Positions 7,962-30,743 are shown, counted from the stretch's first letter. The stretch: 64,000 nucleotides of DNA from a candidate division FCPU426 bacterium (GCA_040756875.1 JBFLYH010000003.1:64001-128000), one strand, 5' to 3'. Notes: generated by a model not told the origin, from the sequence alone. Translations and numbers: made by a program.

Positions 7962-9361
7962 TCCGGCCAGTCTTCGGGCAGTTTTTCCACGGCCGCGGGC
8001 CGCGGCGCCTGGGCCAGCGACTCCTGCCGCCACCTGCGCACTTCCCCGGCCCACTGCTTGATCAACATGAGCTTTTGCAGCATTTCCACGGTCTCCACGG
8101 CCCCGCCCTGGGACGCAGCCACCACGTCCCTGGCTTTGCCGCCCCGGCGTTTGGCTTCCCGGGAATCGGCCAGGAGCCGGATGACCGCCTGGGCCAGGTC
8201 GCTGGCCTGGGTGACGACCTGCGCACCGCCGGCCGCGGTCAACGCGGCCACGGCCTGGCTGAAGTGTTCGGTATGCGGGCCGACCAGCACCGGCACGCCC
8301 CAGGCCGCGGGTTCGAGCGGGTTGTGGCCGCCGAACGGCATGAGGCTTCCGCCCACGAACGCCACGTTGGCCAACCCGTAGAATTTGGCGAGTTCTCCCA
8401 TGGTGTCCACCAGGATCACCGGAAAATCCAGGAGCTCCTTGGCCACCCGGGACCTGAGGGCATAAGCCAGGCGCCGCTCGCCGAGCAGGCGCTGGATTTC
8501 CTTGATCCGCTCCAGGTGGCGGACCGCCAGGATCAGCAGGGCCGAAGGCTGGGCGGCCAGCACCTGCTGGAAAGCTTCCACGACGATCGCTTCCTCGCCC
8601 GGCCGGGTGCTGCCGGCCACCCACACGGGCCGGTCCGGCGCCAGGCGCAGCTCCGCGCGCAGGGGCTCCAGGTCCGTTTCCACTGGCACGTCGAACTTGA
8701 CGTTGCCGATGACTTTGACGCGCTGCGGATTGGCGCCCAGGGCCTGGAACCGCTCCTGGTCCTTTTCGGTCTGCACGGCCAGCAGGTCGAAGCGTTCCAA
8801 CAGCCGGCGGATCAGGGGTTGGAGCCGGCGGTAGCGGCTGAAGCTGCGCTCGGACATGCGGCCGTTGATGAGCGCGAGCTGGCTGCCGTGGCGTTTGACC
8901 TGGCGCGCGAAGTTCGGCCACAATTCGGTCTCCGCGATGGCCACCAGCTGGGGCTCGGCCACGTTCAGCACGCGGCGCGCGGCCCCGTAAAAATCCAGCG
9001 GCAGCAGCAGGGTCGCGGCCGCAAAGGGGATCTGCCGCTTGGCCTGTTCCTGCCCGCTCTGGGTCATGGTGGAAACCAGCAGGCTCCACTGGGGGTTCCG
9101 GTCGTGGAGCTGGCGCGCCACCGGCGCGATGGCCGCGATCTCGCCCACGCTGGCCGCGTGCAGCCAGACTCGCGGCCTGGGCGCGGCTTGGATGGTTTCG
9201 CGCAGGGACTTGGGCAGGAACCCCAGGCGCTGGCCCAGGCCCTTGGCCAGCTTGGGGCGGACCGCAAAAGCAGCTAGCCAGACCGGCAGGCTCGCCAGAC
9301 CGATCAGGGGCAGAACCAGGTTATACAGCAGCTGCACGGGAATGCCTTTCGCGTTTTTCAT
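7955..9361 (-). CDS. waaA: 3-deoxy-D-manno-octulosonic acid (Kdo) transferase
   Basis: Motifs 'WLHAASVGE', 'ETELWPN', 'GNVKFD' and 'GGHNPLEPA'. Confidence 0.95.
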   Translation of the reverse strand: MKNAKGIPVQLLYNLVLPLIGLASLPVWLAAFAVRPKLAKGLGQRLGFLPKSLRETIQAAPRPRVWLHAASVGEIAAIAPVARQLHDRNPQWSLLVSTMTQSGQEQAKRQIPFAAATLLLPLDFYGAARRVLNVAEPQLVAIAETELWPNFARQVKRHGSQLALINGRMSERSFSRYRRLQPLIRRLLERFDLLAVQTEKDQERFQALGANPQRVKVIGNVKFDVPVETDLEPLRAELRLAPDRPVWVAGSTRPGEEAIVVEAFQQVLAAQPSALLILAVRHLERIKEIQRLLGERRLAYALRSRVAKELLDFPVILVDTMGELAKFYGLANVAFVGGSLMPFGGHNPLEPAAWGVPVLVGPHTEHFSQAVAALTAAGGAQVVTQASDLAQAVIRLLADSREAKRRGGKARDVVAASQGGAVETVEMLQKLMLIKQWAGEVRRWRQESLAQAPRPAAVEKLPEDWPEW

Positions 9362-9366
9362 CGTGC

Positions 9367-9394
9367 GTAGGGGCGTTCACTTGACCGCCCCTAC
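9367..9394. repeat. GTAG-type REP palindrome (copy 1)
   Basis: GTAGGGGCGTTCAC-TTGACCGCCCCTAC. Overlaps the lpxB stop codon. Confidence 0.75.
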
Positions 9395-10545
9395 GAGGGA
9401 TTCTTTTTCGCAGACAAAAAATCCAGGATCTCGCCGGCGGCCCGCTCCGCGACGCCCGGTCCGCCCAGATGCTTCCGCAAATCATCCCAGGCCCGGCGCT
9501 GCGCCTGGGCGGCCGCCGAATCGGTCAGGAGTCTGACCGCGGCCGCAAAGACCGCCTCAGCCGTGTATTCGTGCTGCAGGAATTCAGGGGCGACCCGCTC
9601 GCCGGCCACCAGGTTGGCCAGGCCGAAAAAATCCAGCTTAACGAAACGCCGGGCCAGCCAGTAACTGACGGACTGCATGCGGTAGACGATGAGCTGGGGC
9701 GTGCCCAGGAGCGCGGTCTCCAGGGTGGCGGTCCCCGAGGAAACGATGGCCAGGTCCGCGGCTGCCCGGGCGGCAAACGGCCGTTCGCGCACCAGCACGG
9801 CCGGGCACCTGGCCGCGGTCAGCAGGCCGGCCACGCGCGCTTCGGACACGGTCCGGGCCAGGGGCAGGATCAGACGGCAGCCGGGAAACCGCTCGGTCAG
9901 GCGCCGCCCGGCCTCGGCCATGGCCGGCAGGATGAATTCGATCTCCTGGGACCGGCTGCCCGGCAGGAGCGCGACCAGGGGGCCGGCCGCCCCGGCCAGC
10001 AGTCGCCGCCGTTCCTCCTGCGGATCGGTTTCCAGCTTGACTTGGTCCACCAGGGGGTTGCCCACGAACGCCACGGGGATCCCCGCCTCGCGGTAGATCG
10101 CCTCCTCGAACGGCAGGATGACGAGCATCCGGTCCACCAGGCGGCGCAGGGTGTTGATCCGGCCCCGGCGCCAGGCCCAGATCTGCGGGCTGATGTAATA
10201 CACCACCGGGATGCCCAGGGCCTTGGCCATGGCGCCGATGCGGAAATTCAGGTCCGGGAGGTCGATCAGCACGACCGCGTCCGGCCGCTCGCGCCGCAGG
10301 AGGTCGCGCGCGCAGCGCAGGGCCCGCAGGAAAGAACCGAGCTTGCGCAGCGCCTCGGTGATGCCGATGACCGCGTGCGACACCAGGTCGAATTCCACGC
10401 GCGCGCCGGCCTGCCGCAGCCGCTCGCCGCCCAGGGCCAGGACCTGCAGGCCGGGACGGCGTTGGCGCAGCGCGGCCACCAGGTCCGCGCCGTGCTGGTC
10501 GCCGGAAGCCTCTCCGGCCACGACCAGGATCTTGGGTTCCGCCAT
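9391..10545 (-). CDS. lpxB: Lipid-A-disaccharide synthase
   Basis: Motifs 'VAGEASGD', 'YISPQIWAWR', 'LLPGSRSQE' and 'SGTATLE'. Confidence 0.95.
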   Translation of the reverse strand: MAEPKILVVAGEASGDQHGADLVAALRQRRPGLQVLALGGERLRQAGARVEFDLVSHAVIGITEALRKLGSFLRALRCARDLLRRERPDAVVLIDLPDLNFRIGAMAKALGIPVVYYISPQIWAWRRGRINTLRRLVDRMLVILPFEEAIYREAGIPVAFVGNPLVDQVKLETDPQEERRRLLAGAAGPLVALLPGSRSQEIEFILPAMAEAGRRLTERFPGCRLILPLARTVSEARVAGLLTAARCPAVLVRERPFAARAAADLAIVSSGTATLETALLGTPQLIVYRMQSVSYWLARRFVKLDFFGLANLVAGERVAPEFLQHEYTAEAVFAAAVRLLTDSAAAQAQRRAWDDLRKHLGGPGVAERAAGEILDFLSAKKNPS

Positions 10546-12893: not shown

Positions 12894-12956
12894 GGATTGG
12901 GATGATTATACCGGAAATTGCCAGCCCCTGGCACAGGCATTTTATATATAGGAAAG

Positions 12957-12986
12957 CGCGGGGGCGTTCACATGAACGCCCCCGCG
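12957..12986. repeat. REP palindrome variant (copy 2)
   Basis: Perfect 14-bp stem CGCGGGGGCGTTCA-CA-TGAACGCCCCCGCG with the same core as the GTAG REPs. Confidence 0.65.
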
Positions 12987-13051
12987 AAAAGATGGACCCG
13001 CAGCCCAAGCGTATGGTACGATGCCTGAAAAACCCACGAGGTGCCAATCCC

Positions 13052-15577
13052 ATGCGATTTTCACGGCCTTTTTCCACTCTGGCCTTGCTGGCCGCCCTGC
13101 CCTGGCTGGCAGGCGCCGCTGCCCCGGCTGCGGCCCCCAAACCCCTGCAGGTCAAGCTGTCCGGCGCCCAGGAAACCAGCCTGCAAGCCCAGTGGACCGC
13201 TGTTTCCGGCGCCACGGGTTACGAACTGTCCTGGGGACTGGGGCCGGACGCCTCGCAAGCCGGCCAGGCCAGCCTTACGGAAACCAAGAACCGGATCAAG
13301 GACCTTCTGCCCGGCACAGTGTACTACTTCAAAGTCCGCGCCCTGACGGGTAAAACCACCGGGGACTGGAGCCCGGCGGCCTCATTGTCCACGGCCATGC
13401 CCAAACTCGACCCGCCGGTTCCCGGCGAAGTGCTCGATGCCCGGGCCGAACTCGCGCTCAAGCATCCTTTCCCCAGCCTGGACCAGCGCTGGTTTGAAGT
13501 CAGCTATGGCACGGACCGCCAGGCCGCGAACGTCGGCGTGGAAAAAACCCGCACCGCGTCCGCGCACCTGGGCAAGCTCAAACCCGACACCGCGTATTGG
13601 GTCAAAGTCCGCGTCTGCAACGCTTCCGCCAACGGCCCGTGGAGCGACGCCGTTTCCCTGACCACCCTGCCCTATTCCCCGGGCCAAGCTCCCGAGGGCC
13701 TGGCGGTGAAGAACCTGGCTCCGGGTCGGGTGGAGGCCACTTGGCAGCGCGTGGCTGCCGCGGAAAAATACGAAGTGGGGTTCGCCCTCGACGCCTCGCT
13801 CATGGACCGGAAGTCCTCGGTCACCAACGCCACCCGCGCGGAACTGACGCTCGCGCCCAACACCCGCTATTTCTTCAAAGTCCGCTCCCTGATCGAAGAC
13901 CGGCCGAGCTATTGGTCCGTGGAAGCCGAACTGTTGTCCCTGCCCGACACGCCGCGGGAATTGAAGCTGGACAACCGCAGCCAGCAGCAAATCATCATCA
14001 GCTGGCGGCCCGGGACAGGTTCGGACGAGACGCAGCTGTATGAAGTGGCCTGGGACGGCGGCCTGAAAGGCTCCACGCTCACCGCCATGACCAACCTTTC
14101 CCTGGAGGGGTTGCCGGCCGGGCGTTCCTTCTCCTTCAGGGTCCGCAGCCGCAACGACAGCGGCGCGAGTCCTTGGAGCCAGACCTTGAACGTTTCGACC
14201 CAGTCCCTGCCGCCTGCCGTGACCGGCGTCCGCATTGAACGGACCGAAAAGGAGCAGGCCCAGGTCACCTGGTCCCAGCAGGGCGGGGCCCGGGCCTACG
14301 AAGTGTCCTACGGTTCGGACCCCGAGGCTGAAAACCGGGGATTTTTCGAAACGCCCCGGCCTCCCGCGCTGCTGCGCGACCTGCTGCCGGGCGTGACCTA
14401 TCAGGCCAAGGTGCGTCCGATCCTGATTGACCAAACCCCGGGCGCGTGGTCCCAGCCCGTCACGTTCGCGACCCTGGGCGTTCCCTCGGACGTGGAAGGG
14501 TTTCTGTTGGCCGGCCAAGCCGGCCGCGAAGCGAACTTCACCTGGCAATCCGGCGGGGTGGAAGCTTACGAATTGGAAATCCGCATGCCCTCGGACATGT
14601 CCCTGGGGCGGATCATCAAGGCGGCCAAGCCTCCGGCCAAAGTGAGCGGGTTGGAGCCCAACCACGAATACCGCGCCGCCATTCGCGCCTGCCAGGGCGA
14701 CAGCGCCGGCCCCTGGTCTGAACCCGTGTCCTTCACCACCCTGCCCCAGCAGGCGCCGGCCCGGGTCAGCGTCAGCGGCGTTACGGCTGCCGAGGCCACA
14801 GTGACCTGGGAGCGCCTTCCCGGCCCGGTGGCTGCGACCTACAACGTACGCTGGGCTGCCGCCGGCCAGGAATGGCAGCAACGGACTTCCCTTTCCAGCC
14901 TGGCCGCCACCTTGTCGCCCCTGGACCCCAACCTGACTTACCGGGTTGAAGTGCAGGCCCAAAACGCGGGCGGCGCCGGCCCCTGGAGCCCGGAGACGAC
15001 CTTTCGCACGCCCAATGCCCCGCCCCAGTACCCGCCCGAGCGGCTGCGCGTGGACCAGGTGACAGACCTGTCGGCGCGCGTCTCCTGGCGGCCTGTTCCC
15101 GGCGCCCAGGGTTACCACCTGGGCCTCGGCCTGACCAGCGATGTCAGCGACCGCCCGCAGGTCGTCTCGGGCGAGACGCATCAAACTCTGCGCAACCTCG
15201 TCCCCGAGACCAATTACTACGTCAAGGTCCGCGCTTACAACGCCACGGGCGAAGGTCCCTGGACCGAAGCGCTATGGTTTTCCACGCCGCCCTCGCCGCC
15301 CATTACCGCGCCCACCCAGTCGGCCATCGGCAACGTCAAGACGCGCTCCCTGGTGCTGTCCTGGGACGCGGATCCCAAGGCCCTGCGTTATGAAGTGAGC
15401 ATCGGCACGGACGCCCTGGGCGAGGACCAGGGCCCGCCGCAAGTCAGCCATGATGCCACCTTTACGTTCGTCAACCTCCAGCCCAACACCACTTACCGGG
15501 CCAAAGTCCGCCTGGTCAACAGCGGCGGGCAAGGGCCGTGGAGCCAAGTCCGCATCGCCACCACCCTGCCGGAGTGA
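13052..15577 (+). CDS. Secreted protein of nine tandem fibronectin type III domains
   Basis: Signal peptide 'MRFSRPFSTLALLAALPWLAGA'. Nine units each show W...Y.V...L.P.T.Y..KVRA....G.WS. Confidence 0.85.
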   Translation: MRFSRPFSTLALLAALPWLAGAAAPAAAPKPLQVKLSGAQETSLQAQWTAVSGATGYELSWGLGPDASQAGQASLTETKNRIKDLLPGTVYYFKVRALTGKTTGDWSPAASLSTAMPKLDPPVPGEVLDARAELALKHPFPSLDQRWFEVSYGTDRQAANVGVEKTRTASAHLGKLKPDTAYWVKVRVCNASANGPWSDAVSLTTLPYSPGQAPEGLAVKNLAPGRVEATWQRVAAAEKYEVGFALDASLMDRKSSVTNATRAELTLAPNTRYFFKVRSLIEDRPSYWSVEAELLSLPDTPRELKLDNRSQQQIIISWRPGTGSDETQLYEVAWDGGLKGSTLTAMTNLSLEGLPAGRSFSFRVRSRNDSGASPWSQTLNVSTQSLPPAVTGVRIERTEKEQAQVTWSQQGGARAYEVSYGSDPEAENRGFFETPRPPALLRDLLPGVTYQAKVRPILIDQTPGAWSQPVTFATLGVPSDVEGFLLAGQAGREANFTWQSGGVEAYELEIRMPSDMSLGRIIKAAKPPAKVSGLEPNHEYRAAIRACQGDSAGPWSEPVSFTTLPQQAPARVSVSGVTAAEATVTWERLPGPVAATYNVRWAAAGQEWQQRTSLSSLAATLSPLDPNLTYRVEVQAQNAGGAGPWSPETTFRTPNAPPQYPPERLRVDQVTDLSARVSWRPVPGAQGYHLGLGLTSDVSDRPQVVSGETHQTLRNLVPETNYYVKVRAYNATGEGPWTEALWFSTPPSPPITAPTQSAIGNVKTRSLVLSWDADPKALRYEVSIGTDALGEDQGPPQVSHDATFTFVNLQPNTTYRAKVRLVNSGGQGPWSQVRIATTLPE

Positions 15578-15587
15578 GACTGCGAAT

Positions 15588-15720
15588 ATGGAGCCCCCCG
15601 GGCATAGCCCGGGGTCCCAGTGAGAACCTCGCATCGCCGGCTCATTAGGCAGGCGACATCCCTGCAACGCTTAAATCGCATTTATCCCTAGGCAAACCCG
15701 GTTTTTTTTGCGTTGCAGGG
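15588..15720 (-). mobile_element. Non-autonomous IS200/IS605-like mini-element, copy A
   Basis: Homologous to 30594-30741 and 63010-63127. Has subterminal hairpins and follows TTTAT on the minus strand. Confidence 0.6.
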
Positions 15721-15722
15721 AT

Positions 15723-15762
15723 AAAAAAAAGCCCCGCACCCTCATGGGTGCGGGGCTTTTTT
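15723..15762. terminator. Bidirectional rho-independent terminator
   Basis: A8-GCCCCGCACCC-TCAT-GGGTGCGGGGC-T6 between convergent genes. Confidence 0.85.
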
Positions 15763-15778
15763 CTCCCCCCCCGTGCTT

Positions 15779-16339
15779 TTACTCGGTCTTATATTTCCGC
15801 CAGCTATCCTTCAGCTTGGCCAGCGCGGCCTGGATTTCCGACCCTTTGGCGGTCTTGCCGCCCGCGCCCTTTTTGGCGGCTTCCATGGCGTCCTCCACCA
15901 GCTTCCGGTTTCGGACCACTTCCTCCCGCCACTGCGAGCTAAGCGTGTTGAACAAATCCACCATGGAAGTGAACTCATCCGAACGCCGCAACTCGATGTG
16001 CTGGGTCAAATCGCCCTCCCGCAGGGCCTTCAGGGTCTGTTCGAAGCGGTACATCGGTCCGGCAATAGTATGCGAGATGAACACGGACAGCAGCGCCGCG
16101 ACCAGCAGGAAAAGGAACAGCAGGAAGACCAGCGTGCGGTTGACGGAAAAAAACAGGGGCGCAAATTGCGAAGCCACGGGCGGGATGTTGTAGAACTGGT
16201 CCATGATCCGCACCCAGGTGGTGTAGTACGCGGTGAAGGCCACGAACAGGGCCATGATCAGGATTCCAAACAGGGTGCGGATGATGAACCGCAGCTGGAA
16301 ATCCTTGTTGATGAGAAAATTCCGCCGACGCCATTTCAT
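15779..16339 (-). CDS. Small membrane protein with two TM helices and a HAMP domain
   Basis: Two hydrophobic stretches, then 'SHTIAGPMYRFEQTLKALREGDLTQHIELRRSDEF' (HAMP-like). Confidence 0.75.
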   Translation of the reverse strand: MKWRRRNFLINKDFQLRFIIRTLFGILIMALFVAFTAYYTTWVRIMDQFYNIPPVASQFAPLFFSVNRTLVFLLFLFLLVAALLSVFISHTIAGPMYRFEQTLKALREGDLTQHIELRRSDEFTSMVDLFNTLSSQWREEVVRNRKLVEDAMEAAKKGAGGKTAKGSEIQAALAKLKDSWRKYKTE

Positions 16340-16388
16340 GGCGCCACCTCCTCGCTAGGAGCCTGAGCACATAGCCGCTCGGGCTCTA

Positions 16389-16467
16389 GAGCAATTGAGC
16401 AAATTGAACAACTTGAGCAAATCAAGGCTCGATTGCGGTCAATTTGCTCCGCTTGCTCCATTCAATT
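16389..16467. repeat. Short tandem (8-9 bp) GAGCAAATT-like repeats with an inverted counterpart
   Basis: GAGCAATT-GAGCAAATT-GAACAACTT-GAGCAAAT, then ATTTGCTC..TTGCTC.ATTCAATT. Confidence 0.6.
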
Positions 16468-16897
16468 AATAGGCCGAATACGCCACCCCGCGCGTATCCT
16501 GGCCGATGGAATTGATGTAAATCTGCCCGGTTTCGTAGTTGTAATACCAGCCGCGGCCGAACCCTCGCGGCGAGTCAGTGCCGTAAGTCACTTCACCGCC
16601 CGCGGGCGAAGCCGCGCCCGCGCGCGGGTGCAGGGTCGCCACGGCCGGAAGTCCGGACAGGTACCGTCCGAACGGCGACTGCGGGCTCAATTCCCGGGGA
16701 TGAACGCCGTTGTGGTCCTGGTAATATAGCAACAGCGCCTGGCGGATGTGGTGCAGGTTGCCGACCGTGGTCCCTTCCCGGGTCTTCTCCAGCAGGAAGC
16801 TGAAGCGTACTCCCACCATCAGAATCAGCAGCAGGAGCAGCGCTCCGGGAATGACGTAATCCTTGAGCAGAATCCGCTGTCGGGTCGGCAAGGTCAT
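16466..16897 (-). CDS. Pseudopilin (GspG)-like membrane-anchored protein
   Basis: N-terminal TM helix followed by 'KTREGTTVGNLHHIRQALLLYYQDHNGVHP', typical of the pilin alpha helix. No canonical G/FxxxE site. Confidence 0.55.
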   Translation of the reverse strand: MTLPTRQRILLKDYVIPGALLLLLILMVGVRFSFLLEKTREGTTVGNLHHIRQALLLYYQDHNGVHPRELSPQSPFGRYLSGLPAVATLHPRAGAASPAGGEVTYGTDSPRGFGRGWYYNYETGQIYINSIGQDTRGVAYSAY

Positions 16898-16900
16898 GAA

Positions 16901-17749
16901 TCAGGCCTCCTTATGGCCGCGGCGGGGAGCGAGCGCGTCCCGCAGGGTTTTGATCAGGCTGGCGTGCAGTCGGCCGTTGCTGGCCAGGAAAGTGCCGCCG
17001 TAAAGGTTGTGCGGCTTGCCGGCCAGGTCGGTCAGGCGTCCGCCGGCTTCGGCGATCATGACCGACGCAGCCGCCACGTCCCAGGGCTTCAGTTTGTACT
17101 CCCAAAACCCGTCGAACCGGCCGGCGGCCACGTCGCACAGGTCCAGGGAGGCGGAACCGGCGCGCCGGACCGCCTGGCAGTGCTGGGACAGGTACTGGAA
17201 TTCGACGAAATTGTTGCGGGTGCTGATGCGCAAATCGTAGGGAAAGCCGGTGGCCAGCAGGGCGTGGCGGAGCGTGGCGGTCCGCGAAACCTTCAGGCGG
17301 CGGCCGTTGCGCCAGGCGCCTTGCCCCAGGCGGCCGATGAACAGCTCGTCGAGCATGGGGTTGTACACCGCGCCCAGGCGCACGCGGCCGTCCCATTCGA
17401 CGCCCGCGGACACCGCGAAATGCGGAAATCCGTGCGCGTAATTGGTCGTGCCGTCCAGGGGATCGACGATCCAGCGGACCCGGCCCCGCGGAGCCGGCGA
17501 CGAGGGAAACCCGCGGCCCGAGGCTTCGACCAGTTCTTCGGACACCAGTTCATGGCCCGGAAAATGGCGGCGCAAGGCCTGCACAAACAAGGCCTCGACC
17601 GCGTGGTCCATTTCGGTCACCAGGTCGACTTCGCTTTTGAAACGGATGTGGTGGGTTTTTCCCAGGCCGCGGCGCAGTCGTTCTCCGGCGGACAATACGA
17701 TTTGTCTGAGTAATCCCTGTATGCGAGTCAGTTGATGGGGAAGGCTCAA
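16901..17749 (-). CDS. suhB: Inositol monophosphatase family protein
   Basis: Motifs 'WIVDPLDGTTNY', 'TGFPYD', 'RRAGSASLDLC' and 'KPWDVAA'. Confidence 0.85.
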   Translation of the reverse strand: MSLPHQLTRIQGLLRQIVLSAGERLRRGLGKTHHIRFKSEVDLVTEMDHAVEALFVQALRRHFPGHELVSEELVEASGRGFPSSPAPRGRVRWIVDPLDGTTNYAHGFPHFAVSAGVEWDGRVRLGAVYNPMLDELFIGRLGQGAWRNGRRLKVSRTATLRHALLATGFPYDLRISTRNNFVEFQYLSQHCQAVRRAGSASLDLCDVAAGRFDGFWEYKLKPWDVAAASVMIAEAGGRLTDLAGKPHNLYGGTFLASNGRLHASLIKTLRDALAPRRGHKEA

Positions 17750-17789
17750 AGGCGCATTAGTCTCCGTTTATGCTAAGGAAAACAAAGCA

Positions 17790-17966
17790 TTACGATATGT
17801 CTACACAGCGTTTGGCGTATGGTGAATTAATATTATAACCCGTCGTTTTAAGACCTTTAATACGTAATTCCCCAAGTATTTTCAGAACATCATTTAATTG
17901 TGCACGATCAATTTTAATGTTCTTTTTTAAAATCGTCTTTTTATTAATACTATGTATCTTTTTCAT
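17790..17966 (-). CDS. Small basic hypothetical protein (58 aa; absent from the ORF track)
   Basis: Hand translation gives MKKIHSINKKTILKKNIKIDRAQLNDVLKILGELRIKGLKTTGYNINSPYAKRCVDIS. ATGA overlap with the stop of the upstream protease gene. Confidence 0.55.
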   Translation of the reverse strand: MKKIHSINKKTILKKNIKIDRAQLNDVLKILGELRIKGLKTTGYNINSPYAKRCVDIS

Positions 17967-18865
17967 CTTAAAGACACCCCCGAATACTTATTATATGCAT
18001 GCAAAACAATATCGTGACCCCTCCTCTGCGCATAATCAGAAATCAATTTATAATAATGTTTAATCTCACTGTCAAATTCGTTATCTTGACCAAAATCTTC
18101 AATTTTTAGCTTTATATCCCTTACTAATATTTCCATCGTAATTCCACAACTATGTGAATGCCATCTATCGGTGTCGTTTAATTTTCTTGCTATCTCTGCC
18201 GCTCTCGAAGCTTTCATTTTTGGTGTCACATTCTTTCTTCTACCAGAAGTAGTCGCCCAATTTTTAAACTTGTATTTTACCAACCACTCTTTAAGGAGAC
18301 TAATCGACAATTCTCTTTCCTGTTCAAAACGATATAATTCGGCAGGATCAAATTTTTCTGTTAAAAAAACCATTTCTGCAGTGGTTAATTTTCCTTTTCT
18401 TGATTTTTCAATTAATCTTTCGTATTGAATTAAATAACCTAGCGCCGGAACGAGCCCTTTTACAGAAGGGCGGTCTATTTGTGGGTCAATTGGCCCTAAT
18501 ACTGAATAATAATTCATATAAATAGTATCGCCAGACATCACTAAAATTGTACCCGCAGACATAGCATAATTCGGCACAATAAATTCAACTGTTTGATAAT
18601 AATGCCTAGTTACTTCTGCAATTCTTTTTGCAACTTCAATATACCCCCCCTGAGTTTCCAAGATAAAAATCAGTTTTGATTTCTTATCTTTTTTCGACTC
18701 AATAGCTTCTTTAATCAGATCATCAATAGGAGTCATTATTGGTCCCATGAAAAATAACAAATCTCCATCGAGTCTTTTTTCTAATGGTTTTGATCTTTCA
18801 TCAAGTAATTCCTCTAGGATTTCATTAGAACTATGTCTTATAACTTTAGTTGAGGAATCACCCAT
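17963..18865 (-). CDS. SDH family ClpP-class serine protease (serine dehydrogenase proteinase-like), on an AT-rich islet
   Basis: Motifs 'ILETQGG', 'VPNYAMSAGTILVMSGD', 'LGPIDPQ' and 'WHSHS'. Markedly AT-rich relative to its flanks. Confidence 0.8.
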   Translation of the reverse strand: MGDSSTKVIRHSSNEILEELLDERSKPLEKRLDGDLLFFMGPIMTPIDDLIKEAIESKKDKKSKLIFILETQGGYIEVAKRIAEVTRHYYQTVEFIVPNYAMSAGTILVMSGDTIYMNYYSVLGPIDPQIDRPSVKGLVPALGYLIQYERLIEKSRKGKLTTAEMVFLTEKFDPAELYRFEQERELSISLLKEWLVKYKFKNWATTSGRRKNVTPKMKASRAAEIARKLNDTDRWHSHSCGITMEILVRDIKLKIEDFGQDNEFDSEIKHYYKLISDYAQRRGHDIVLHAYNKYSGVSLR

Positions 18866-18904
18866 AATTACACCAACTTTAATTATTTTTAATTTCTTTC
18901 TCCA

Positions 18905-19013
18905 AGGTGTCCGAGATAAGCGTTTGCGAAAAGGACTGGTATTTTTAAGTTTTCGCGAGCCGAGGCCGCTTTCCCCGAAGCGGACGTCTTTCGAAGCTAT
19001 ACCTCGAACACCT
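18905..19013. repeat. Structured TIR-bounded element, copy 1
   Basis: Homologous to 25326-25444 (shared AAGCGTTTGCGAAAAGGACTGGT and GTCTTTCGAAGC..CCTCGAACA). Confidence 0.75.
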
Positions 19014-19117
19014 AAAATCAGGACTTTTTTTAGAGGTTTCAGATTATTACTGAGATAAATAAATTATGGCATATTTATAGCAAAATGTATAGTCTTCGAA
19101 GTGTAAACCTTAAGCTC

Positions 19118-20605
19118 TCAGTTGGCGGAGGGAAACAGGGTGAAGCGGAGGTTGAAATAGCCGAGAAAAGCCCAGCCCTGGTCCCAGTGCAGGTAGGCGA
19201 CGTCGAAGTTGAACAGCCGGTCCACGTGCATGTTGACCAGCACCGGGTGCTGCTGGGACCGGAGTTCGGCGTCCGTGGGATACAGGATCTCCCACGCCAG
19301 GTTGACGCGGCGGGCCAGGGGCAGGTCCATGCCGAAGTAAAACATGTTGCGGGTGCGCACGGTGTCGCCGTAGCGCAGGTACTTGGACAGGTACAGCAGC
19401 GGGTCGCCGAGCGAGCCGAACACGTATCCGCTGTGCAGCCCCAGGTCGCCTAATGAGCGGCTGATGACCGCGTAGCCGCCCCAGACGTAATCCAGTTCCG
19501 ACTTGTTGGAAAAAGTGAAGCTGCCGGAGGTCTGGCTCTGCTGGCCGGCGAAGAGCTGGAGCGAGGCTTTGCCGCCCACGGCTGCGGTCAGGGGCCAGTT
19601 CTTCTCGGACACCGGCGTGTACTTGGCGTCCGCGGACAGGAGCCACAAGCTGATGGGATCCAGGTACAGCGGCAGGGGCGACAATTCCTTGGCCTGCTCG
19701 CCGTAGAGCGTGCCGATGTAGTAGGTGAACATCATGTCGCCGGTCAGGCCCGTGTCCAGCCAGTCCACGCCCCGGTAGGCGGTGGACATGAGGATCAGAC
19801 CGTTGCGGCTGCGCGGCCGCGCCCGGGCGCTTACCTCGGCGCTGGCCGGGCCGGTCTGCCCGCGCGCATCCACGGCCAAAACTTCGTACAGGTAGTTCCG
19901 GCGCGGATCGCCGGTCTCGTCATAATATTCTTCCTTGGCGACCGGGGCCGGGGTCAGAAGCACGGCCGTTTCGCCCGGCCCGGTTTTCCGCCGCACCAGA
20001 TAAGCGGTCACCTCGTAGGAGGTGCGGGTGGGTTTTTTCCACTTCAGTTGCACGCGCTCCTCCTGGTTGCTGGCCGACACTTCGGGCGCCAGCGGCGGCA
20101 CGGCGGGCAGCAGGCGGGCGAGAATCGTGGCCGAGGAAACCAGGGTGTCGCCGCTGCCGCTGACTGCGGTGACTTGGTACGTATACCAGGTGCCGGCCGT
20201 GGCGCTGAGGTCCTGATAACTGGCCGTGGTCAGGGCCTGGGACGTCATGGGCTCCAGCGCGCGGCCGGCCTCGGCCCGGGAAACCAGGTATCCGGCCAGG
20301 GCCACGGCGGTCTGAGTGGTGGACCAGGAAAGGGTGATCGTTTCGGAGGTGGCCGTGGCGGTCAAGCCCAGGGGGTCGACGACAGCGGAAGTCCATTCCC
20401 CGCCCGAGGCCTGCGCGGCCGTCGTGGAGCCCGCGGCGTCGGCCTGCAAACCGGCGGACCGGGCCGTGGCTGTGGCGCTGCCGGCTTCAGAGGACTGGCC
20501 GGCCAGCGCGCGCAGGGCCCGCTCCAGGGGCGTAAGGGTTTTGGCGCCCATGCCCAGGCCGGCCGCCAGCAACAGGCCGCAGGCAGCGAGGATGCGCGCG
20601 CGCAC
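19118..20605 (-). CDS. Secreted protein with two Fn3-like domains and a predicted C-terminal beta-barrel-like region
   Basis: Signal peptide; two 'TLSW...YLV.R...Y.D....Y.Y.V.AV' units; aromatic amphipathic strands at the C-terminus. Confidence 0.6.
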   Translation of the reverse strand: MRARILAACGLLLAAGLGMGAKTLTPLERALRALAGQSSEAGSATATARSAGLQADAAGSTTAAQASGGEWTSAVVDPLGLTATATSETITLSWSTTQTAVALAGYLVSRAEAGRALEPMTSQALTTASYQDLSATAGTWYTYQVTAVSGSGDTLVSSATILARLLPAVPPLAPEVSASNQEERVQLKWKKPTRTSYEVTAYLVRRKTGPGETAVLLTPAPVAKEEYYDETGDPRRNYLYEVLAVDARGQTGPASAEVSARARPRSRNGLILMSTAYRGVDWLDTGLTGDMMFTYYIGTLYGEQAKELSPLPLYLDPISLWLLSADAKYTPVSEKNWPLTAAVGGKASLQLFAGQQSQTSGSFTFSNKSELDYVWGGYAVISRSLGDLGLHSGYVFGSLGDPLLYLSKYLRYGDTVRTRNMFYFGMDLPLARRVNLAWEILYPTDAELRSQQHPVLVNMHVDRLFNFDVAYLHWDQGWAFLGYFNLRFTLFPSAN

Positions 20606-20609
20606 GGCG

Positions 20610-21194
20610 TCAGCCCTTCCGGCGCGCGGGCCGGAACTTGAGAAAATTGGCGAGCAGCGCTTTGCCGGCCACGGTCAGGATGGACTCCGGGTGAAATTGC
20701 ACGCCCTCGGTCGGGAAGTGCTTATGCCGCAGTCCCATGATTTCACCGGCCTGCGTCTTGGCCGTGACGACCAGGCAGTCCGGCAGGTTGCGGGGCGACA
20801 CCAGCAGCGAATGATAGCGGGTGGCGGTCAGCGGGTTGGGCAGGCCCTTGAACACGCCGCGGTTGTCGTGGCGGACCTCCGACGTCTTGCCGTGCATGAG
20901 CCGGCTGGCGCGCACCACGCGCCCGCCGAAAGCCTCGCCGATGGCCTGGTGCCCGAGGCACACGCCCAGGATGGGCAGGCGCGGGGCGAAGGTCCGGATC
21001 GCGGCCACCGAAATGCCGGCTTCGCGGGGCGTGCAGGGCCCGGGCGAAATCACCAGGTGGTCCGGCCGCAGGCGCGCGATGCCCGGCAGATCGATCCGGT
21101 CGTTGCGGACCACGCGCAGGCGCTGTCCCAGTTCGCCCAGATACTGGACCAGGTTATACGTGAAAGAATCGTAATTGTCGATGACCAGGATCAT
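20610..21194 (-). CDS. trpG: Anthranilate synthase component II / glutamine amidotransferase
   Basis: Motifs '[10 protein letters not shown]', 'GVCLGHQ', 'RYHSL' and 'QFHPES'. Confidence 0.9.
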
Positions 21195-22699
21195 GCCTTG
21201 CGCCTCCTCGCCGCGCCCAGGGGCCAGCCCTGGCTGGCCAGCTCCAAGGCCCGCTTGAGCGCCCGCATCTTGTTCTCGGTCTCCAGGTATTCCCTATCGG
21301 GCTTGGAATCAGCCACGATGCCGGCCGCGGCCTGCAGGTGATAGGTCCCCCGCGAATAGAGGATGGTGCGGATGGTGATGCCCGTGTCCAGGTCCCCGGA
21401 GTAATCGAAGTAGCCCACCGCGCCCGCGTACGGGCCCCGCCGCTCGGTTTCGAGTTCCTCGATGATTTCCATGGCCCGGATCTTGGGCGCGCCGGTCACG
21501 GTGCCGGCCGGAAACGCGGCCTGCAGGGCGTCGCACTGGTCCTGGCCGGCCTGCAGTTTCCCCTCCACGTGGGACACGATGTGCATCACGTGGGAATAGC
21601 GCTCGATGACCATCAGCTCCGGGACCCGCACGCTGCCGAAGCGGCTGACGCGCCCCACGTCGTTCCGCCCCAGGTCCACCAGCATGATGTGCTCGGCCCT
21701 CTCCTTGGGGTCGGCCAGCAGCTTGGCCTCCAGGCGCTGGTCCTGGGTGGCCGTGGCGCCCCGCCGGACCGTGCCGGCGATGGGCCGGGTGGCGACCATC
21801 GCTCCGGTCTTGCGGAGCAGCAATTCGGGCGAGGAGCCCAGGAGCTCGCACTCCGGAAAGCGCAGGTAGAACATGTACGGCGAGGGATTGATGGTGCGCA
21901 GGGCCCGGTAGACGGAGAACGGCGGCACGGGCACCTCGGCGCTCAGCCGCCGCGAAATCTGCACCTGGATGATGTCGCCGGCCCGGATGTACGCTTTGGC
22001 CTTGCGCACCTGGTCCAGGAACTGGGCCCGCGTCACGTTGGAACGCAGGCGCGGCGCGGGCAGCGACGGCGCTTTGCCTTCGGCGCGCGGCAGGGGCTGG
22101 CGCAGCTTCCGGCTCAGGTTGCGGATCGCGGCCACGGCGCGCTGGTAGGCCCGGGCCGGATCGCCGGTCACGTGGGCGTTGCTCACCACTTTGATCACGT
22201 GCTGCACGTGGTCGAACACCAGCAGGTTTTCCGTGAACACCAGCAGCGCATCAGGAAGCCCGAGAGGGTCCGGGTTCCGGGTGGGCAGCTTTTCGAAATA
22301 ACGCGCCAGATCGTAGCTGAGGTAGCCCACGGCCCCGCCGTGGAACGGCGGCAGGCCGGGCGTGGCCACGTGCCGGTAGCGTTTCAGGAGCTGCCGGACC
22401 ACGTCCAGGGGGTTGCCGCCGTGAGGCAGCATGCGGACCTTGCCGGCCACATGGTGCTCCACCACGCCGCCCCGCACGGCCACCCACTCCGCGGGGTCCG
22501 CGCCCAAAAAGGAATACCGTCCGACCTGGTCGCCGCCTTCCACGCTCTCGAGCAAAAAGGCCCGGGACGCCCGGTCGGCGATCTTCAGGAAGGCCGACAC
22601 CGGCGTCTCCACGTCCGCGGGCAGCTCGGCGTAAACCGGAATCAGGTTGCCCCGGCGGCTGCGGCGCTTGAATTCGTCCCAGCTGGGATAAAAGTTCAT
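21191..22699 (-). CDS. trpE: Anthranilate synthase component I
   Basis: Motifs 'LLESVEGG', 'NPSPYM', 'RPIAGT', '[13 protein letters not shown]' and '[10 protein letters not shown]'. Confidence 0.93.
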
Positions 22700-22725
22700 G
22701 ATGCCCTCACGCGATCATCCGCTTT

Positions 22726-23112
22726 TCAATGGGAGGAGTACTTGTCCCCCGGTTCGAACACCTTCTCGCCGTCCACGATCAGGCTGCCGTCTTCGGCCAC
22801 GCGGCGGAAAAAGCAGGAGCGGTAGCCCTCGTGGCAGGCGCCGCCCACCTGCTCCACCTTCATGAGCACGGCGTCCTGGTCGCAGTCCACGTGCAGGCTT
22901 TTGACCCGCTGCACATGGCCCGAGGTCTCGCCTTTTTTCCATAGTTTATTGCGGGAGCGGCTGTAATAGTGGGCCACTCCGGTTTCCAAGGTCAGGCGCA
23001 GGGCTTCGTCGTTCATAAAGGCCTGCATCAGGACCTCCTGGGTGGCCGCGTCCTGGACAATGGCCACCAACAGGCCCTGGGAATTGAATTTCATACCGTT
23101 GGGAACGGGCAT
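22726..23112 (-). CDS. hisI: Phosphoribosyl-AMP cyclohydrolase
   Basis: Motifs 'YSRSRNKLWKKGETSG', 'DCDQD' and 'ACHEGYRSCF'. Confidence 0.95.
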   Translation of the reverse strand: MPVPNGMKFNSQGLLVAIVQDAATQEVLMQAFMNDEALRLTLETGVAHYYSRSRNKLWKKGETSGHVQRVKSLHVDCDQDAVLMKVEQVGGACHEGYRSCFFRRVAEDGSLIVDGEKVFEPGDKYSSH

Positions 23113-23158
23113 GCGACTTCCTCCTTTTTCTTTTCCTGATTTTCCGCGAAACGCGTCC

Positions 23159-23938
23159 CTATTTTGCGCCGTGCGTCAGCCGCACCGGCACGCCGCGCCG
23201 GGCCAGATACCGCTTGGCCTGGCTGATCGTGTACTTGCCGTAGTGAAAAATGCTGGCCGCCAGCACCGCGTCGGCCCAGCCCTGGTCCAGCACTTCGGCC
23301 AGGTGCTTGAGCTGCCCGGCCCCGCCGCTGGCGATCACGGGCACGCTCACGGCCTGCGAAACGGTCCGGGTCAGTTCCACGTCGTACCCGTTCTGCGTGC
23401 CGTCGCAATCCATGGAGGTGAGCAGGATTTCGCCCGCGCCCAGGGCCACGCCGCGCCTGGCCCACTTGACCGCGTCCAGGCCCGTGGGCGTGCGGCCGCC
23501 GTGGATGAAGACCTCCCACAGGGACTGGCGCCCGGGCCGACGCCGGGCGTCGATGGCCAGCACGATCGTGCTGCGCCCGAACACCTCGGACGCCTGCCGC
23601 AGCAGCTCCGGCCGCTGGACCGCCGTGGTGTTGATGGATACCTTGTCCGCACCGGCCCGCAGCAGGTCCCGGATGTCCTGGATGCTGCGGATGCCCCCGC
23701 CCACGGTCAGCGGCATGAACACCTGCTCCGCGCAGCGCTCCACCACGCGCAGCATGGTGCGCCGGCTCTCCACGCTGGCGGTGATGTCGAGAAACACCAG
23801 CTCGTCCGCGCCGGCGCGGTCGTACACCTTGGCTTGCGCCACCGGATCGCCGGCGTCGCGCAGGTGCACGAAATTCACGCCCTTCACCACCCGGCCGTCC
23901 TTGACGTCCAGGCAGGGGATGATGCGTTTGGCCAGCAC
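23159..23938 (-). CDS. hisF: Imidazole glycerol phosphate synthase cyclase subunit
   Basis: Motifs 'RIIPCLDV', '[11 protein letters not shown]' and 'LTSMDCDGT'. Confidence 0.95.
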
Positions 23939-23947
23939 CGTGCCTCC

Positions 23948-24673
23948 TTAGGCCGCGGCGGCCGCGACCGCGTCCTTCAGGTCCAGGGCGCCGGTGTAGA
24001 GCGCCTTGCCGATGATGCAGCCGCTGACGCCGTATTTTTCGAGGTTCTTCAGATGCTTGATGTCCTTGACCGAGGCCACGCCGCCCGAGGCGATGATCGG
24101 AATGTTCACCGCGCAGGCCATGGCCTTGATGCCCTTGAAATTGGGGCCGGACAGCAGGCCGTCGCGCTTGACGTCCGTGAAGATGAGGTGCCTCACCCCC
24201 GCTTTTTCCAGTTCCTGGGCGAACTCGATCGCGGACTTGTCCGTCACGTCCTTCCAGCCGCGGATGGCGACCTTGCCGTCGCGGCTGTCCACGCCCACCA
24301 CGATGCGCGCGGCGCCGAAACGCTTCAGGGCCTTGGTGAGGAAATCCAGGGAGAGCGCGTTCGTGCCCAGGATGACGCGGCGGATGCCGTTGTCCAGCAC
24401 TTCCTTGATCAGGTCCAGGTCGCGGATCCCGCCGCCGAACTGGATCGGAATGCGGACGGCCTTGGCGATCTGGTAGACGTATTTCAGGTTCTTCGGCGTG
24501 CCGGTCAGGGCGCCGTCCAGGTCCACGACGTGCAGGTATTTGGCCCCCTTGAGCTGCCACAGCTTGGCCATGGAGCTGGGTTCCTTGGAATACACGGTTT
24601 CATCGCGGACGTCGCCGCGCACCAGCCGCACGCAGCGGCCTTTGCGCAAATCAATGGCAGGATAAATCATCAT
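23948..24673 (-). CDS. hisA: ProFAR isomerase
   Basis: Motifs 'IYPAIDL', 'LHVVDLDGA', 'GGGIR' and 'GKALY'. Confidence 0.95.
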   Translation of the reverse strand: MMIYPAIDLRKGRCVRLVRGDVRDETVYSKEPSSMAKLWQLKGAKYLHVVDLDGALTGTPKNLKYVYQIAKAVRIPIQFGGGIRDLDLIKEVLDNGIRRVILGTNALSLDFLTKALKRFGAARIVVGVDSRDGKVAIRGWKDVTDKSAIEFAQELEKAGVRHLIFTDVKRDGLLSGPNFKGIKAMACAVNIPIIASGGVASVKDIKHLKNLEKYGVSGCIIGKALYTGALDLKDAVAAAAA

Positions 24674-24679
24674 GGTCCT

Positions 24680-25294
24680 TCACCCCTTGCGCTGCAACCA
24701 GCGCGCCAGATTACGGTAAACCTGCAGGCCCAGGTCCTGGCTCTTCTCCGGGTGGAACTGGGTGGCCAGGATGTTGTCTTTGCCGACCGCGGCCGCGACC
24801 TCGATGCCGTAGGCCGTGGTCGCCAGCGTCAACTGCGGGTCCGCGGGCTCGCAGTAAAACGAATGCACGAAATACATGTAAGAGCCGTCCGGAATGCCGC
24901 GCAGCAGGGGGTGGCGCCGCTTGACCGAAAGGCTGTTCCACCCCATGTGCGGCACTTTGTATTTCTTGGGGAACGGCCGCACGCGCCCCGGAAAAATGCC
25001 CAGGCCCGCGTGCCGGCCGAACTCCTCGGAGGTCTCGAACAGCAGCTGCATGCCCAGGCACACGCCCAGGAGCGGCTTGCCGTTGAAGGCCGCCTCCTTC
25101 AGGACGCCGATCAGCCGCTGCCGCGACAGGTTCTGCATGGCGTGCCCGAACGCGCCCACGCCGGGCAGTATGATCGCCCGGCTGCGGCGCAGGTCCCGCG
25201 CCTGCGACGTGATCCGCGACGGCAGTCCGGCCCGGGTGCAGGCTTTCTGCACCGAGTGCAGGTTTCCCATGCGGTAATCGACGATAGCCACCAT
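24680..25294 (-). CDS. hisH: Imidazole glycerol phosphate synthase glutaminase subunit
   Basis: Motifs 'DYRMGN', 'GVCLGMQ', 'VPHMGWN' and 'QFHPEKS'. Confidence 0.95.
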   Translation of the reverse strand: MVAIVDYRMGNLHSVQKACTRAGLPSRITSQARDLRRSRAIILPGVGAFGHAMQNLSRQRLIGVLKEAAFNGKPLLGVCLGMQLLFETSEEFGRHAGLGIFPGRVRPFPKKYKVPHMGWNSLSVKRRHPLLRGIPDGSYMYFVHSFYCEPADPQLTLATTAYGIEVAAAVGKDNILATQFHPEKSQDLGLQVYRNLARWLQRKG

Positions 25295-25325
25295 AACCGG
25301 TCGTCCTTCTGTGATCTTTTCAGCG

Positions 25326-25444
25326 GGGTGTTCGAGGTATTGCTGAGAAAGCGTTTGCGAAAAGGACTGGTCCTGCCGCCTTTTCGCAAGCCGAGGCCGC
25401 CCTCCTGATGGCGGCCGTCTTTCGAAGCAATGCCTCGAACATCT
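25326..25444. repeat. Structured TIR-bounded element, copy 2 (hisB-hisH spacer)
   Basis: Imperfect terminal inverted repeat GGTGTTCGAGGTATTGCT / AGCAATGCCTCGAACATC enclosing two internal hairpins. Confidence 0.75.
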
Positions 25445-25454
25445 ATTCCATCCG

Positions 25455-26048
25455 CTACAGCCGGCCTTTGGTGCTGGGGACGCCCTGTTGGCGGGAATCC
25501 CGTTCCAGAGCCTGCCGGAGCGCCCGTCCCAGGCCTTTGAAGGCCGCTTCCACGACGTGGTGCGTGTTGCCGCCGGCCAGCTGCGCCAAGTGCAGCGTCA
25601 GGCCGGCTTGATTGCTCAGGGCGCGGAAAAACTCCGTCGCCAGTTCCGTGTCAAAGGTCCCCAGCCGGCGCTGACGCAGCTTCAACCCGAAATTCAGAAA
25701 CGGCCGGCCCGACAGGTCGACGGCCACGGCCACCAGCGACTCGTCCATGGGAATCATGGCCCAGCCGTAGCGCCTGAGGCCGCGCTTGTCGCCCCAGGCT
25801 TTGGCCAGCGCCTGCCCCAGGGTCAGGCCCACGTCCTCGACCAGATGGTGCTGATCCACCTTCAAATCTCCCTTGGCCCGGATGTCCAAATCCACCAGGC
25901 TGTGGCCGGCCAACAGCGTCAGCATGTGCTCCAGGAAGGGAATGCCCAGGTCCAGGCGGGCCCGGCCGCTGCCATCCAGGTTCACGGACAGCGAAATGTC
26001 GGTCTCCTTGGTTTGGCGCCGTATGCGGGCAATGCGTGATTTGGGCAT
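25455..26048 (-). CDS. hisB: Imidazoleglycerol-phosphate dehydratase
   Basis: Motifs 'RQTKETDI', 'FLEHML', 'DQHHLVED' and 'NTHHVVEA'. Confidence 0.95.
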   Translation of the reverse strand: MPKSRIARIRRQTKETDISLSVNLDGSGRARLDLGIPFLEHMLTLLAGHSLVDLDIRAKGDLKVDQHHLVEDVGLTLGQALAKAWGDKRGLRRYGWAMIPMDESLVAVAVDLSGRPFLNFGLKLRQRRLGTFDTELATEFFRALSNQAGLTLHLAQLAGGNTHHVVEAAFKGLGRALRQALERDSRQQGVPSTKGRL

Positions 26049-26060
26049 GGGGATCCCTCC

Positions 26061-28579: not shown

Positions 28580-28615
28580 GTTCGGGGACACTCCGTGGAT
28601 AAGAAAGAAAGGAGT

Positions 28616-28644
28616 ACTATAGCATCCGTCACGCGGAGGGGCAA
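28616..28644 (-). promoter_or_regulatory. Sigma70-type promoter of the his-trp operon
   Basis: TTGCCC-N17-TATAGT with an extended -10 TG. Confidence 0.55.
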
Positions 28645-28706
28645 GGTTTTTCCCGCCGGGAAAAAGACTGTTTTATCCGGGTTTTAAATGCAAACCGGCG
28701 GGCCTG

Positions 28707-30484: not shown

Positions 30485-30533
30485 ATGGATGTTCCTTTTT
30501 AAAAAGGATGCCCCCCGCCAATAACGCTGACGC

Positions 30534-30563
30534 AGTATAGCATTCCAGGCTAGGGGGATGCAA
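30534..30563 (-). promoter_or_regulatory. Sigma70-type promoter of murA
   Basis: TTGCAT-N18-TATACT with an extended -10 TG. Confidence 0.5.
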
Positions 30564-30593
30564 GCAGAGGGCCGGCGGAAGTGCAGACAGGCC

Positions 30594-30741
30594 GTGGAGC
30601 CCCCCGGCGATCCCTGCAGGGACCGAAGGCCGGGGCACCACTAAAAAATCTTGCGTCTCCGGCCCATTCGGCAGGCGACATCCTGCAACGCCGCTGGGGC
30701 CTTCATCCCCAGGCGTGCCCGGGTCTTTCGGCGTTGCAGGG
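30594..30741 (-). mobile_element. Non-autonomous IS200/IS605-like mini-element, copy B
   Basis: Aligns with copy A (GGAGCCCCCCGG ... GGCAGGCGACATCC.TGCAACGC ... GCGTTGCAGGG). Confidence 0.6.
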
Positions 30742-30743
30742 TT

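Follow-up and report, generated by a model that had tools for sequence, protein, structure and literature searches.

The DNA analysed here is a 64,000-nucleotide stretch from a candidate division FCPU426 bacterium (GCA_040756875.1, JBFLYH010000003.1:64001-128000), referred to as the window, which contains three copies (A, B, and C) of a short, hairpin-rich repeat that probably belongs to the non-autonomous elements of the IS200/IS605 type. A reading of the window made from its sequence alone (the sequence-only reading) had described three related elements in the same orientation; profile matches and alignments place them exactly there (Table 1), with an uncertainty of +/-1 nt at the left boundary of copy B. 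It had also noted that a minus-strand hairpin with a T-run precedes each element. This holds for all three copies: a hairpin scan reports the upstream hairpins of B and C but omits that of copy A, which was read directly.

A family of short structured repeats

The likeness among the three copies is far beyond chance, with scores of 1e-40 to 9e-29 against a profile built from them. The search of the whole 3.22-Mb genome (G000) with this profile (E<1e-4) yielded 30 matches, corresponding to 29 elements after the two halves of one interrupted copy were merged, so that the genome contains at least 29 copies, plus about 10 weaker fragments. Within the taxonomic family of the host, BLAST searches with one copy detected the repeat in 8 of 10 other genomes, but in none of 30 genomes from other families of the phylum; it is known from six genera of this one family. 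At least 39 BLAST matches are present in another species of the same genus (G001).

Members of the family are 115-175 nt long (114-159 nt by another measurement), which is too short to encode a transposase. In plus orientation (the strand reading ATGGAG...GGGG), they consist of RTGG, AGCC, a hairpin with an 8-bp GC stem (H1), YACC, a variable hairpin (H2), an invariant 10-mer, and a long stem (H3). H3 encloses a second GC hairpin (H4) that closely resembles H1 and is followed by four bases (X), the 3' arm of H3, a G-run, and four further bases (F) past the last G-run, usually AT and two variable positions. The active ("top") strand is the minus strand of the window, on which the reverse complement of X is the left guide and that of F the target. 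Read on the top strand, the left end thus comprises a 4-nt target in the flank, the predicted cut, about 11 nt that form one arm of the long stem, the 4-nt left guide, H4, and the other arm; then follow the invariant 10-mer, the variable hairpin, the 4-nt right guide, H1, 4 nt, the terminal CCAY, and the second predicted cut.

H1 and H4 have GC stems of 7-8 bp and loops of 2-5 nt, and are alike within each lineage. All stems are preserved by compensating changes across subfamilies and genera. In a MAFFT alignment, the long-stem arms of different subfamilies are out of register, and RNAalifold accordingly recovered H1 alone. Genome-wide, there are 53 occurrences of the most conserved 10-mer. 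The elements begin with ATGGAGCC... and end with ...GGGG, and terminal inverted repeats are not seen in alignments of either 29 or 19 copies. The right-guide and terminal tetranucleotides quoted in the sequence-only reading (GGGA/CCAT, GGTG/CCAC, and GGTA/CCAT for copies A, B, and C) are correct, as is its remark that the GC hairpin of copy C is partly deleted.

Table 1. Copies A, B, and C and their adjoining features (window coordinates; the top strand is the minus strand)
Feature	Position	Strand	Remarks
Copy A, whole element	15588-15720	-	Profile match and alignment; missing at the syntenic G001 site
Copy A, right-end terminal tetranucleotide	15588-15591	-	ATGG on plus strand, CCAT on top strand
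Copy A, right-end hairpin H1	15596-15614	-	8-bp GC stem, 3-nt loop
Copy A, right-end guide tetranucleotide	15615-15618	-	TCCC on plus strand, GGGA on top strand; 5' of hairpin foot
Copy A, most conserved 10-mer of the family, linker before H3	15652-15661		(Near-)invariant in alignments
Copy A, long stem H3	15658-15722	-	Arms 15658-15670 and 15710-15722
Copy A, decayed inner hairpin H4	about 15686-15701	-	Enclosed by H3
Copy A, left-end guide	15706-15709	-	TTTT on plus strand, AAAA on top strand
Copy A, target tetranucleotide in flank	15721-15724	-	ATAA on plus strand, TTAT on top strand; also in the empty G001 site
Two-way terminator-like hairpin	15731-15756		A-run on one side, T-run on the other; read directly; conserved in G001
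Copy B, whole element	30594-30741	-	Left boundary +/-1 nt; missing at the syntenic G001 site
Terminator-like hairpin and T-run, upstream of copy B on top strand	30751-30782	-	14 pairs; hairpin scan
Copy C, whole element	63010-63127	-	5' arm of H1 deleted
Copy C, 10-mer	63060-63069	-	
Copy C, H4	63094-63112	-	
Copy C, left-end guide	63113-63116	-	TTTT on plus strand
Copy C, target tetranucleotide	63128-63131	-	ATAA on plus strand, TTAT on top strand
Hairpin and T-run, upstream of copy C on top strand	63136-63153	-	Hairpin scan

A promoter-like site (TTGAAG, 16 nt, TATAAT; 10/12) is located on the minus strand at 63160-63187, just before the hairpin upstream of copy C. Given this position, the hairpin may belong to a leader instead of terminating an upstream gene.

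Empty sites and junctions

The elements are or were mobile. The region from 13000 to 32000 of the window is syntenic with a contig of G001 (75-89% identity), where copy A is cleanly missing and the empty site reads ...GAAT^AAAAAAGCCCC (the caret marks the junction). Copy B is also missing from its syntenic site, which is too diverged to read the junction to the base; at copy C, the syntenic interval of G001 is 168 nt shorter, again with an unreadable junction. The element at another locus of G000 (L012) is likewise missing in G001. The same pattern emerges in the opposite direction: among 31 copies of G001, 19 have both flanks at a single locus of G000. These 19 loci comprise 3 at which both genomes carry the element, 14 with a G000 interval shorter by 90 nt or more, and 2 other cases. 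Orthologous loci are thus often empty, although some copies are orthologous between the two species. Copy C and the elements at L012, L021, L008, L013, L073, and L074 are absent or replaced in the other genome, with intergenic DNA too diverged to resolve the junctions.

Copies with at least 95% identity to each other account for 20 of 276 pairs in G001, 2 of 15 in a further genome (G006), and 1 of 3 in another (G003), whereas none of 300 pairs in G000 reaches 90%. The near-identical pairs in the sister genomes indicate recent activity there, and their lack in G000 that its copies are older. One of the orthologous copies (L019, C3:15435-15597 in G000; L052 in G001) adjoins a stretch of 96 nt with 100% identity between the two species, guessed to be a tRNA gene.

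Four junctions (copy A, L065, L066, and L054) are readable to the base. In all of them, AT is common to the left flank and the sequence after the G-run; in L065, this extends to the whole ATGG. Nothing further is shared at these junctions, in agreement with the proposed model. The empty sites of copy A and L066 hold the F tetranucleotide (ATAA and ATTG, respectively) but no ATGG, which indicates that F is chromosomal and that RTGG is part of the element. It follows that the minus strand is the top strand, that CCAY is the last tetranucleotide of the element, that the target lies 5' of the left end, and that both guides (the reverse complements of X and YACC) are located 5' of the feet of their hairpins. 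Head-to-tail tandems have a single AT in common, the outcome that reuse of a CCAT target or of the CCAT terminus of another copy would give.

The AT, or in some copies ATGG, at both junctions of filled sites might be taken as the very short target duplication of a cut-and-paste miniature inverted-repeat transposable element mobilized by a DDE transposase. Such an origin is extremely unlikely. In addition to the lack of terminal inverted repeats, the 5' junction reads ATGG or GTGG regardless of F (ATAA, ATGA, or ATTG), so that the two sides are not duplicates and the duplication model fails; the empty sites of copy A and L066, which lack ATGG, contradict it directly. The comparison with empty sites suggested in the sequence-only reading, with no target duplication as the expected result, revealed none at the four readable junctions, albeit a small number.

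Covariation of guides and targets

X and F were extracted with a script that aligned four hand-typed consensus arms and yielded 81 candidates from eight genomes. After removal of four candidates without a marker and seven with poor arm alignment, 70 copies were tested, a few mis-registered rows being kept. The end of H4 was placed by a position-based rule; minimum-energy folds gave unstable ends. The X and F of L206 (G006), which the script mis-registered, were read by eye.

At the left end, the first two guide bases show complementarity to target bases 1 and 2 in the flank. The match between X3X4 (the plus-strand counterpart of guide bases 1 and 2) and F4F3 was found in 46 of the 70 copies, compared with a mean of 17.1 in shuffled pairings. 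The result is the same for copies that have kept H4 (37/49; shuffle mean, 13.4) and after removal of duplicates and orthologues (33/45; shuffle mean, 12.4), and in none of the three cases did any of 20,000 shuffles reach the observed value. Controls with shifted positions matched in only 6/45 and 6/45 copies. Three classes of guide and flank prevail, namely, TT with AA (20 copies), CC with GG (17 copies), and TC with GA (8 copies).

Because F3 and F4 are flanking bases, each insertion represents a separate trial. Near-identical copies in G001 differ at F3 (ATGG versus ATTG), as expected of bases that belong to the flank, and close relatives with different guides change in step with their targets: TTTT of copy C is combined with ATAA, and TTTC of L003 with ATGA; in G006, TCTC of L031 is combined with ATGA, and TCCC of L206 with ATGG. 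Sister lineages that are one guide base apart land on matching targets, which would represent a natural case of retargeting.

In IS608, guide and cleavage site pair at positions 1-2, 2-1, and 4-4. The sequence-only reading had applied this rule to both ends of the window copies. At the right end, the final positions of guide and element covary: the base after H1 (Y) is complementary to the base before TGG (R) in 42 of 60 copies (shuffle mean, 29.1; 0/20,000 shuffles reach 42), with the states A:T (32), G:C (10), A:C (6), and G:T (1). This bears out the proposed pairing at position 4-4, whereas there is little variation from GG:CC at positions 1-2 and 2-1 (49 and 48 of 60), with counts only slightly higher than in the shuffles. 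Both Y and R lie inside the element and are hence common among related copies, but both states occur in at least two subfamilies; a plain extension of the hairpin cannot explain the covariation because Y:R crosses the TGG/CCA pairs. At the left end, the claim stands for positions 1-2 and 2-1 but not for position 4-4, which is at chance level. With these qualifications, the additional copies retain the covariation at both ends.

The dinucleotide classes correspond to different landing sites. Copies with TT guides, including all three in the window, are found at TTAT targets, those with TC guides at TCAT, and those with CC guides at CCAT, often in the context CCAT^G of a start codon. In L065, the ATG of the start codon is rebuilt by the terminal AT of the element itself. 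Since TTAT is common in the T-tails of terminators, the TT guide explains the siting of all three window copies; the target of copy A derives from the T-run of the hairpin listed in Table 1. The proposal that the family lands in terminator tails is therefore accurate for copies with TT guides but not for those with CC or TC guides. TT-guide copies sit after terminators. CC-guide copies often occupy the start codon itself, with a GC hairpin and a G-run in place of the native upstream region, and could change the translation of many genes.

According to a codon-usage gene caller, 22 of the 29 copies of G000 have a top-strand gene next to their TGGAG end, with a start codon within 30 nt in 9 of these 22. 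Of the 29 copies, 24 have the top strand on the G-rich strand (the lagging-strand template); these 24 also run in the direction of most local genes. Location of the top strand on the lagging-strand template has been reported for IS608 and ISDra2, and genes in G000 are strongly co-oriented with replication.

The orientation relative to neighboring genes and the strong covariation of the stems across copies and genera are also what one would expect of a structured RNA module (a leader, an mRNA stabilizer, or a small RNA) that has spread by duplication or recombination. The excess of A:C over G:T mismatches at the right end favors pairing on the minus strand, which folds more stably in 18 of 29 copies. 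Nevertheless, an RNA function is improbable as the explanation of the family. Searches against Rfam 15 gave no match in the window at the gathering threshold and only three chance-level hits (E 0.45-0.77) for seven loci. The genes beside the copies show no mutual relationship, sister genomes differ in which loci are filled, and near-identical copies occupy many loci in G001. Nor does an RNA fold predict that an internal dinucleotide matches flanking bases that are already present at empty sites. For annotation, the repeats are best masked as mobile elements instead of being interpreted as regulatory RNAs.

Known systems and candidate enzymes

The combination of empty sites, junction structure, and covariation makes it probable that the repeats are guide-directed, gene-less derivatives of IS200/IS605 elements, i.e., palindrome-associated transposable elements (PATEs), and lends support to the overall interpretation in the sequence-only reading. 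The refuting outcomes named there (a lack of further copies, orthologous loci that are always filled, and additional copies without the covariation) did not occur. Guide-based retargeting in IS608 has been shown mainly by engineering. PATEs have been described in Haloquadratum (PMC3119063), and PATE-like elements with target and transposon-encoded motifs also in Geobacillus stearothermophilus (PMC10055086). By the account of the former, PATEs have no inverted terminal repeats, no target duplication, and near-terminal palindromes that are alike at both ends; they are of noncoding length, have a greater distance between end and palindrome at the 5' end and a conserved terminal oligonucleotide, vary in their insertions between strains, and carry smaller repeats inserted into their palindromes. 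All these structural characters are found in the present family, and only the cognate TnpA is missing: no tnpA of the IS200 type, tnpB, or full-length parent was found in G000. The family differs further in the long stem around the left hairpin, in the invariant 10-mer, and in the use of differing guide/target pairs by its lineages. It would be a new bacterial member of the PATEs that uses the known IS200/IS605 chemistry, and published lists of ends and guides may hold closer relatives.

Elements of the IS200/IS605 family have their guide 5' of the foot of the hairpin, their target next to the left end, and a terminal tetranucleotide that closes the right end (PMC6006769). The present elements share this arrangement with IS608 and ISDra2, whose TnpA (a Y1 HUH enzyme) acts by "peel and paste", including the placement of both guides on one strand. 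They also agree in the pairing of positions 1-2 and 2-1 at both ends and of position 4 at the right end, and their orientation is consistent with a top strand on the lagging-strand template but is confounded with gene direction. They differ in that the hairpins are perfect GC palindromes without an obvious bulge, that the spacing is about 11 nt on the left and 4 nt on the right, that pairing of position 4 at the left end is not detectable, and that no cognate TnpA was found. By analogy, a Y1 HUH tyrosine transposase would bind both hairpins on single-stranded DNA, with the guides positioning the cuts, and excise a single-stranded circle. The circle would then insert 3' of a tetranucleotide matching the left guide, so that a point change in the guide would retarget the lineage (TT to TTAT, TC to TCAT, and CC to CCAT). 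A start codon split by insertion into CCAT^G would be restored by the terminal AT of the element.

Several observations weigh against this interpretation. Position 4 at the left end (X1:F1) matches no more often than expected by chance (49/70 versus 45.7; 1219 of 20,000 shuffles reach this value), 24 of the 70 copies break the dinucleotide rule, and copies without H4 fit less well (9/21). The extraction of guides and targets is limited by the 11 dropped copies, the few mis-registered rows, and the hand-typed consensus arms, and only four empty sites are readable to the base, the others being too diverged. The strand bias is confounded by gene orientation. G000 and G001 yielded neither a canonical IS200-type TnpA (Y1, about 130-155 aa) nor a transposase gene bordered by these ends. 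The Y1 genes that are present, which encode an additional helix-turn-helix domain (Y1-HTH), have no element within 1.5 kb, neither at 10 loci in nine genomes nor at the two loci in G000 (L001 and L002). In a related genome (G007), the Y1-HTH genes reside in multi-copy units of their own, 1.07-1.13 kb in length, with terminal inverted repeats that look unlike the ends of the present family. Finally, among public runs, the one search made listed none recorded as RNA, and in a check based on the Logan contigs of one study (including X1), no contig joins across copies A or B, and the contigs of X1 span both copies unbroken.

One joint in X1 that starts inside copy A (15615 to 18920, with 28 letters on the shorter side) was taken as a repeat artifact. 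A loose pattern scan of genome contigs (at least 117 stretches) was equally unproductive: among the 80 loci listed, all but 7 looked like chance matches in GC-rich genomes, those 7 were all from the G001 assembly records, and no autonomous parent element was among the matches listed.

The contig that contains the window has no match to Y1_Tnp, TnpB-type proteins (PF07282 and PF01385), IS110, or Y2 transposases, which agrees with the lack of tnpA and tnpB in the window noted in the sequence-only reading. TnpB-type and IS110 proteins are not found anywhere in G000; with no TnpB detected, the proposed relationship to omega/reRNA-like transcripts lacks support. Y2 transposases gave no match in G000 either, but the search says little because the control genomes also gave none. 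PF01797 has only two matches in G000, both to reading frames of 336 aa on another contig, and only two genes in G001 (348 and 350 aa). The proteins of G000, like those of G001, combine Y1_Tnp with an HTH tail resembling Bac_DnaA_C. They score 75.6 and 79.8 bits against the NCBIfam model "REP-associated tyrosine transposase" (cut-off, 80), and 16 bits against the model for IS200 transposases. A sequence search of the PDB with the Y1-HTH protein gave no match at E up to 0.01.

The scores close to the cut-off for REP-associated tyrosine transposases (RAYTs) raise the possibility that the repeats are a population of repetitive extragenic palindromic (REP) sequences or their paired form (REPINs), copied by a domesticated and vertically inherited enzyme of the RAYT type, here the Y1-HTH protein. 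They would then be long-term residents of the lineage and not derivatives of IS200/IS605, despite a similar chemistry of single-stranded hairpins and guide tetranucleotides. The biology would also be different: the enzyme would be host-like and low in copy number, the repeats would persist over millions of years, and the host might benefit. Two such genes in each of G000 and G001, the orthologous copies of the element in the two species, and the restriction to six genera of one family, which fits vertical persistence, agree with this alternative, as do the low copy number of these genes, which encode the only Y1 proteins of G000, and the persistence of intergenic hairpin repeats within a lineage. 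Close homologs of the first Y1-HTH protein (at least 47% identity) are encoded by seven of the eight other element-bearing genomes of the family but not by either of the two element-free genomes of genus g7, although this co-occurrence is a weak argument because related genomes are not independent.

A REPIN-like nature is nonetheless unlikely. The element is asymmetric and not a pair of inverted REPs, and its hairpins lack the GTAG or GTGG head that defines REPs; on the top strand, the heads are GGTA, GGTG, or GGGA. The element does not border the Y1-HTH genes, which in G007 are multi-copy and have inverted-repeat ends. Moreover, proteins of this kind fall into RAYT subclass 2.1 ("TIRYT"), for which the accessible part of PMC6006769 reports no REP-like partner.

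The same genome harbors a separate, classic REP-like family with a GTAG head and a 10-bp GC hairpin. Four copies are present in the window (9356-9395, 12947-12986, 57807-57846, and 61528-61567) and at least 24 in the whole genome, as judged by a strict pattern. One of the two RAYT-like genes may be the partner of this family.

Under the preferred interpretation of the repeats as PATEs, their mobilization in trans, as proposed in the sequence-only reading, is supported insofar as a non-autonomous mobile family exists; no tnpA/tnpB element with the same ends was found in G000 or G001. Any assignment of the enzyme stays tentative because the Y1-HTH loci have no element nearby and the units of G007 have inverted-repeat ends of their own. 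Yet the Y1-HTH genes are the only Y1 HUH genes in G000, and also in G001 with its 20 near-identical pairs of copies. It is conceivable, if somewhat doubtful, that these PATEs are the missing DNA substrate of orphan Y1-HTH transposases, which would then drive a self-retargeting population. In this scenario, the invariant 10-mer beside the long stem could be a candidate binding site for the HTH domain, and single-base changes in a 2-nt DNA guide may shift lineages between TTAT tails and CCAT^G start codons. The family thus offers a testable candidate substrate for a widespread subclass of enzymes with no known DNA partner.

The ends of the G007 units were considered as possible relatives of the mini-element but bear no convincing likeness to it beyond a short GACAT..CCCC motif, and BLAST finds no mini-element in G007. 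The two Y1-HTH genes of G000 (L001, C1:1038925-1042254; L002) have about 70 nt of downstream sequence in common, and the first of them is preceded by three repeats of about 90 nt. The upstream region of L001 also holds a sequence resembling the left inverted repeat of the G007 units; inverted repeats were found at neither L001 nor L002.

Some members of the family carry a tiny hairpin insert of about 20-45 nt (core GGAAGTCCCT..AGGGA) in the loops of H1 or H4 or past the invariant 10-mer. In the window, a small nested hairpin of this kind occupies the H1 loop of copy B (about 30609-30624); others are located at L011, L013, L019, L023, L024, and L025, and in G000 at C1:626679, C1:1367903, C1:1466361, C1:1505491, and C2:621213. 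The insert always directly follows GCGAC and often ends in GCGAC again. It has the appearance of another site-specific mobile repeat, smaller than the elements that it targets, and recalls the small mobile repeats that attack the palindromes of Haloquadratum PATEs (PMC3119063).

The window contains further repeats. A dispersed repeat at 25325-25445 has nine BLAST matches in G000, and another at 16347-16464 has three matches in G000 and several in G001. An array of more than 30 repeats of 162 nt (54 codons), with identities of 60-80%, extends from 34700 to 42400 on the minus strand, within a predicted protein of 4536 aa that adjoins copy B.

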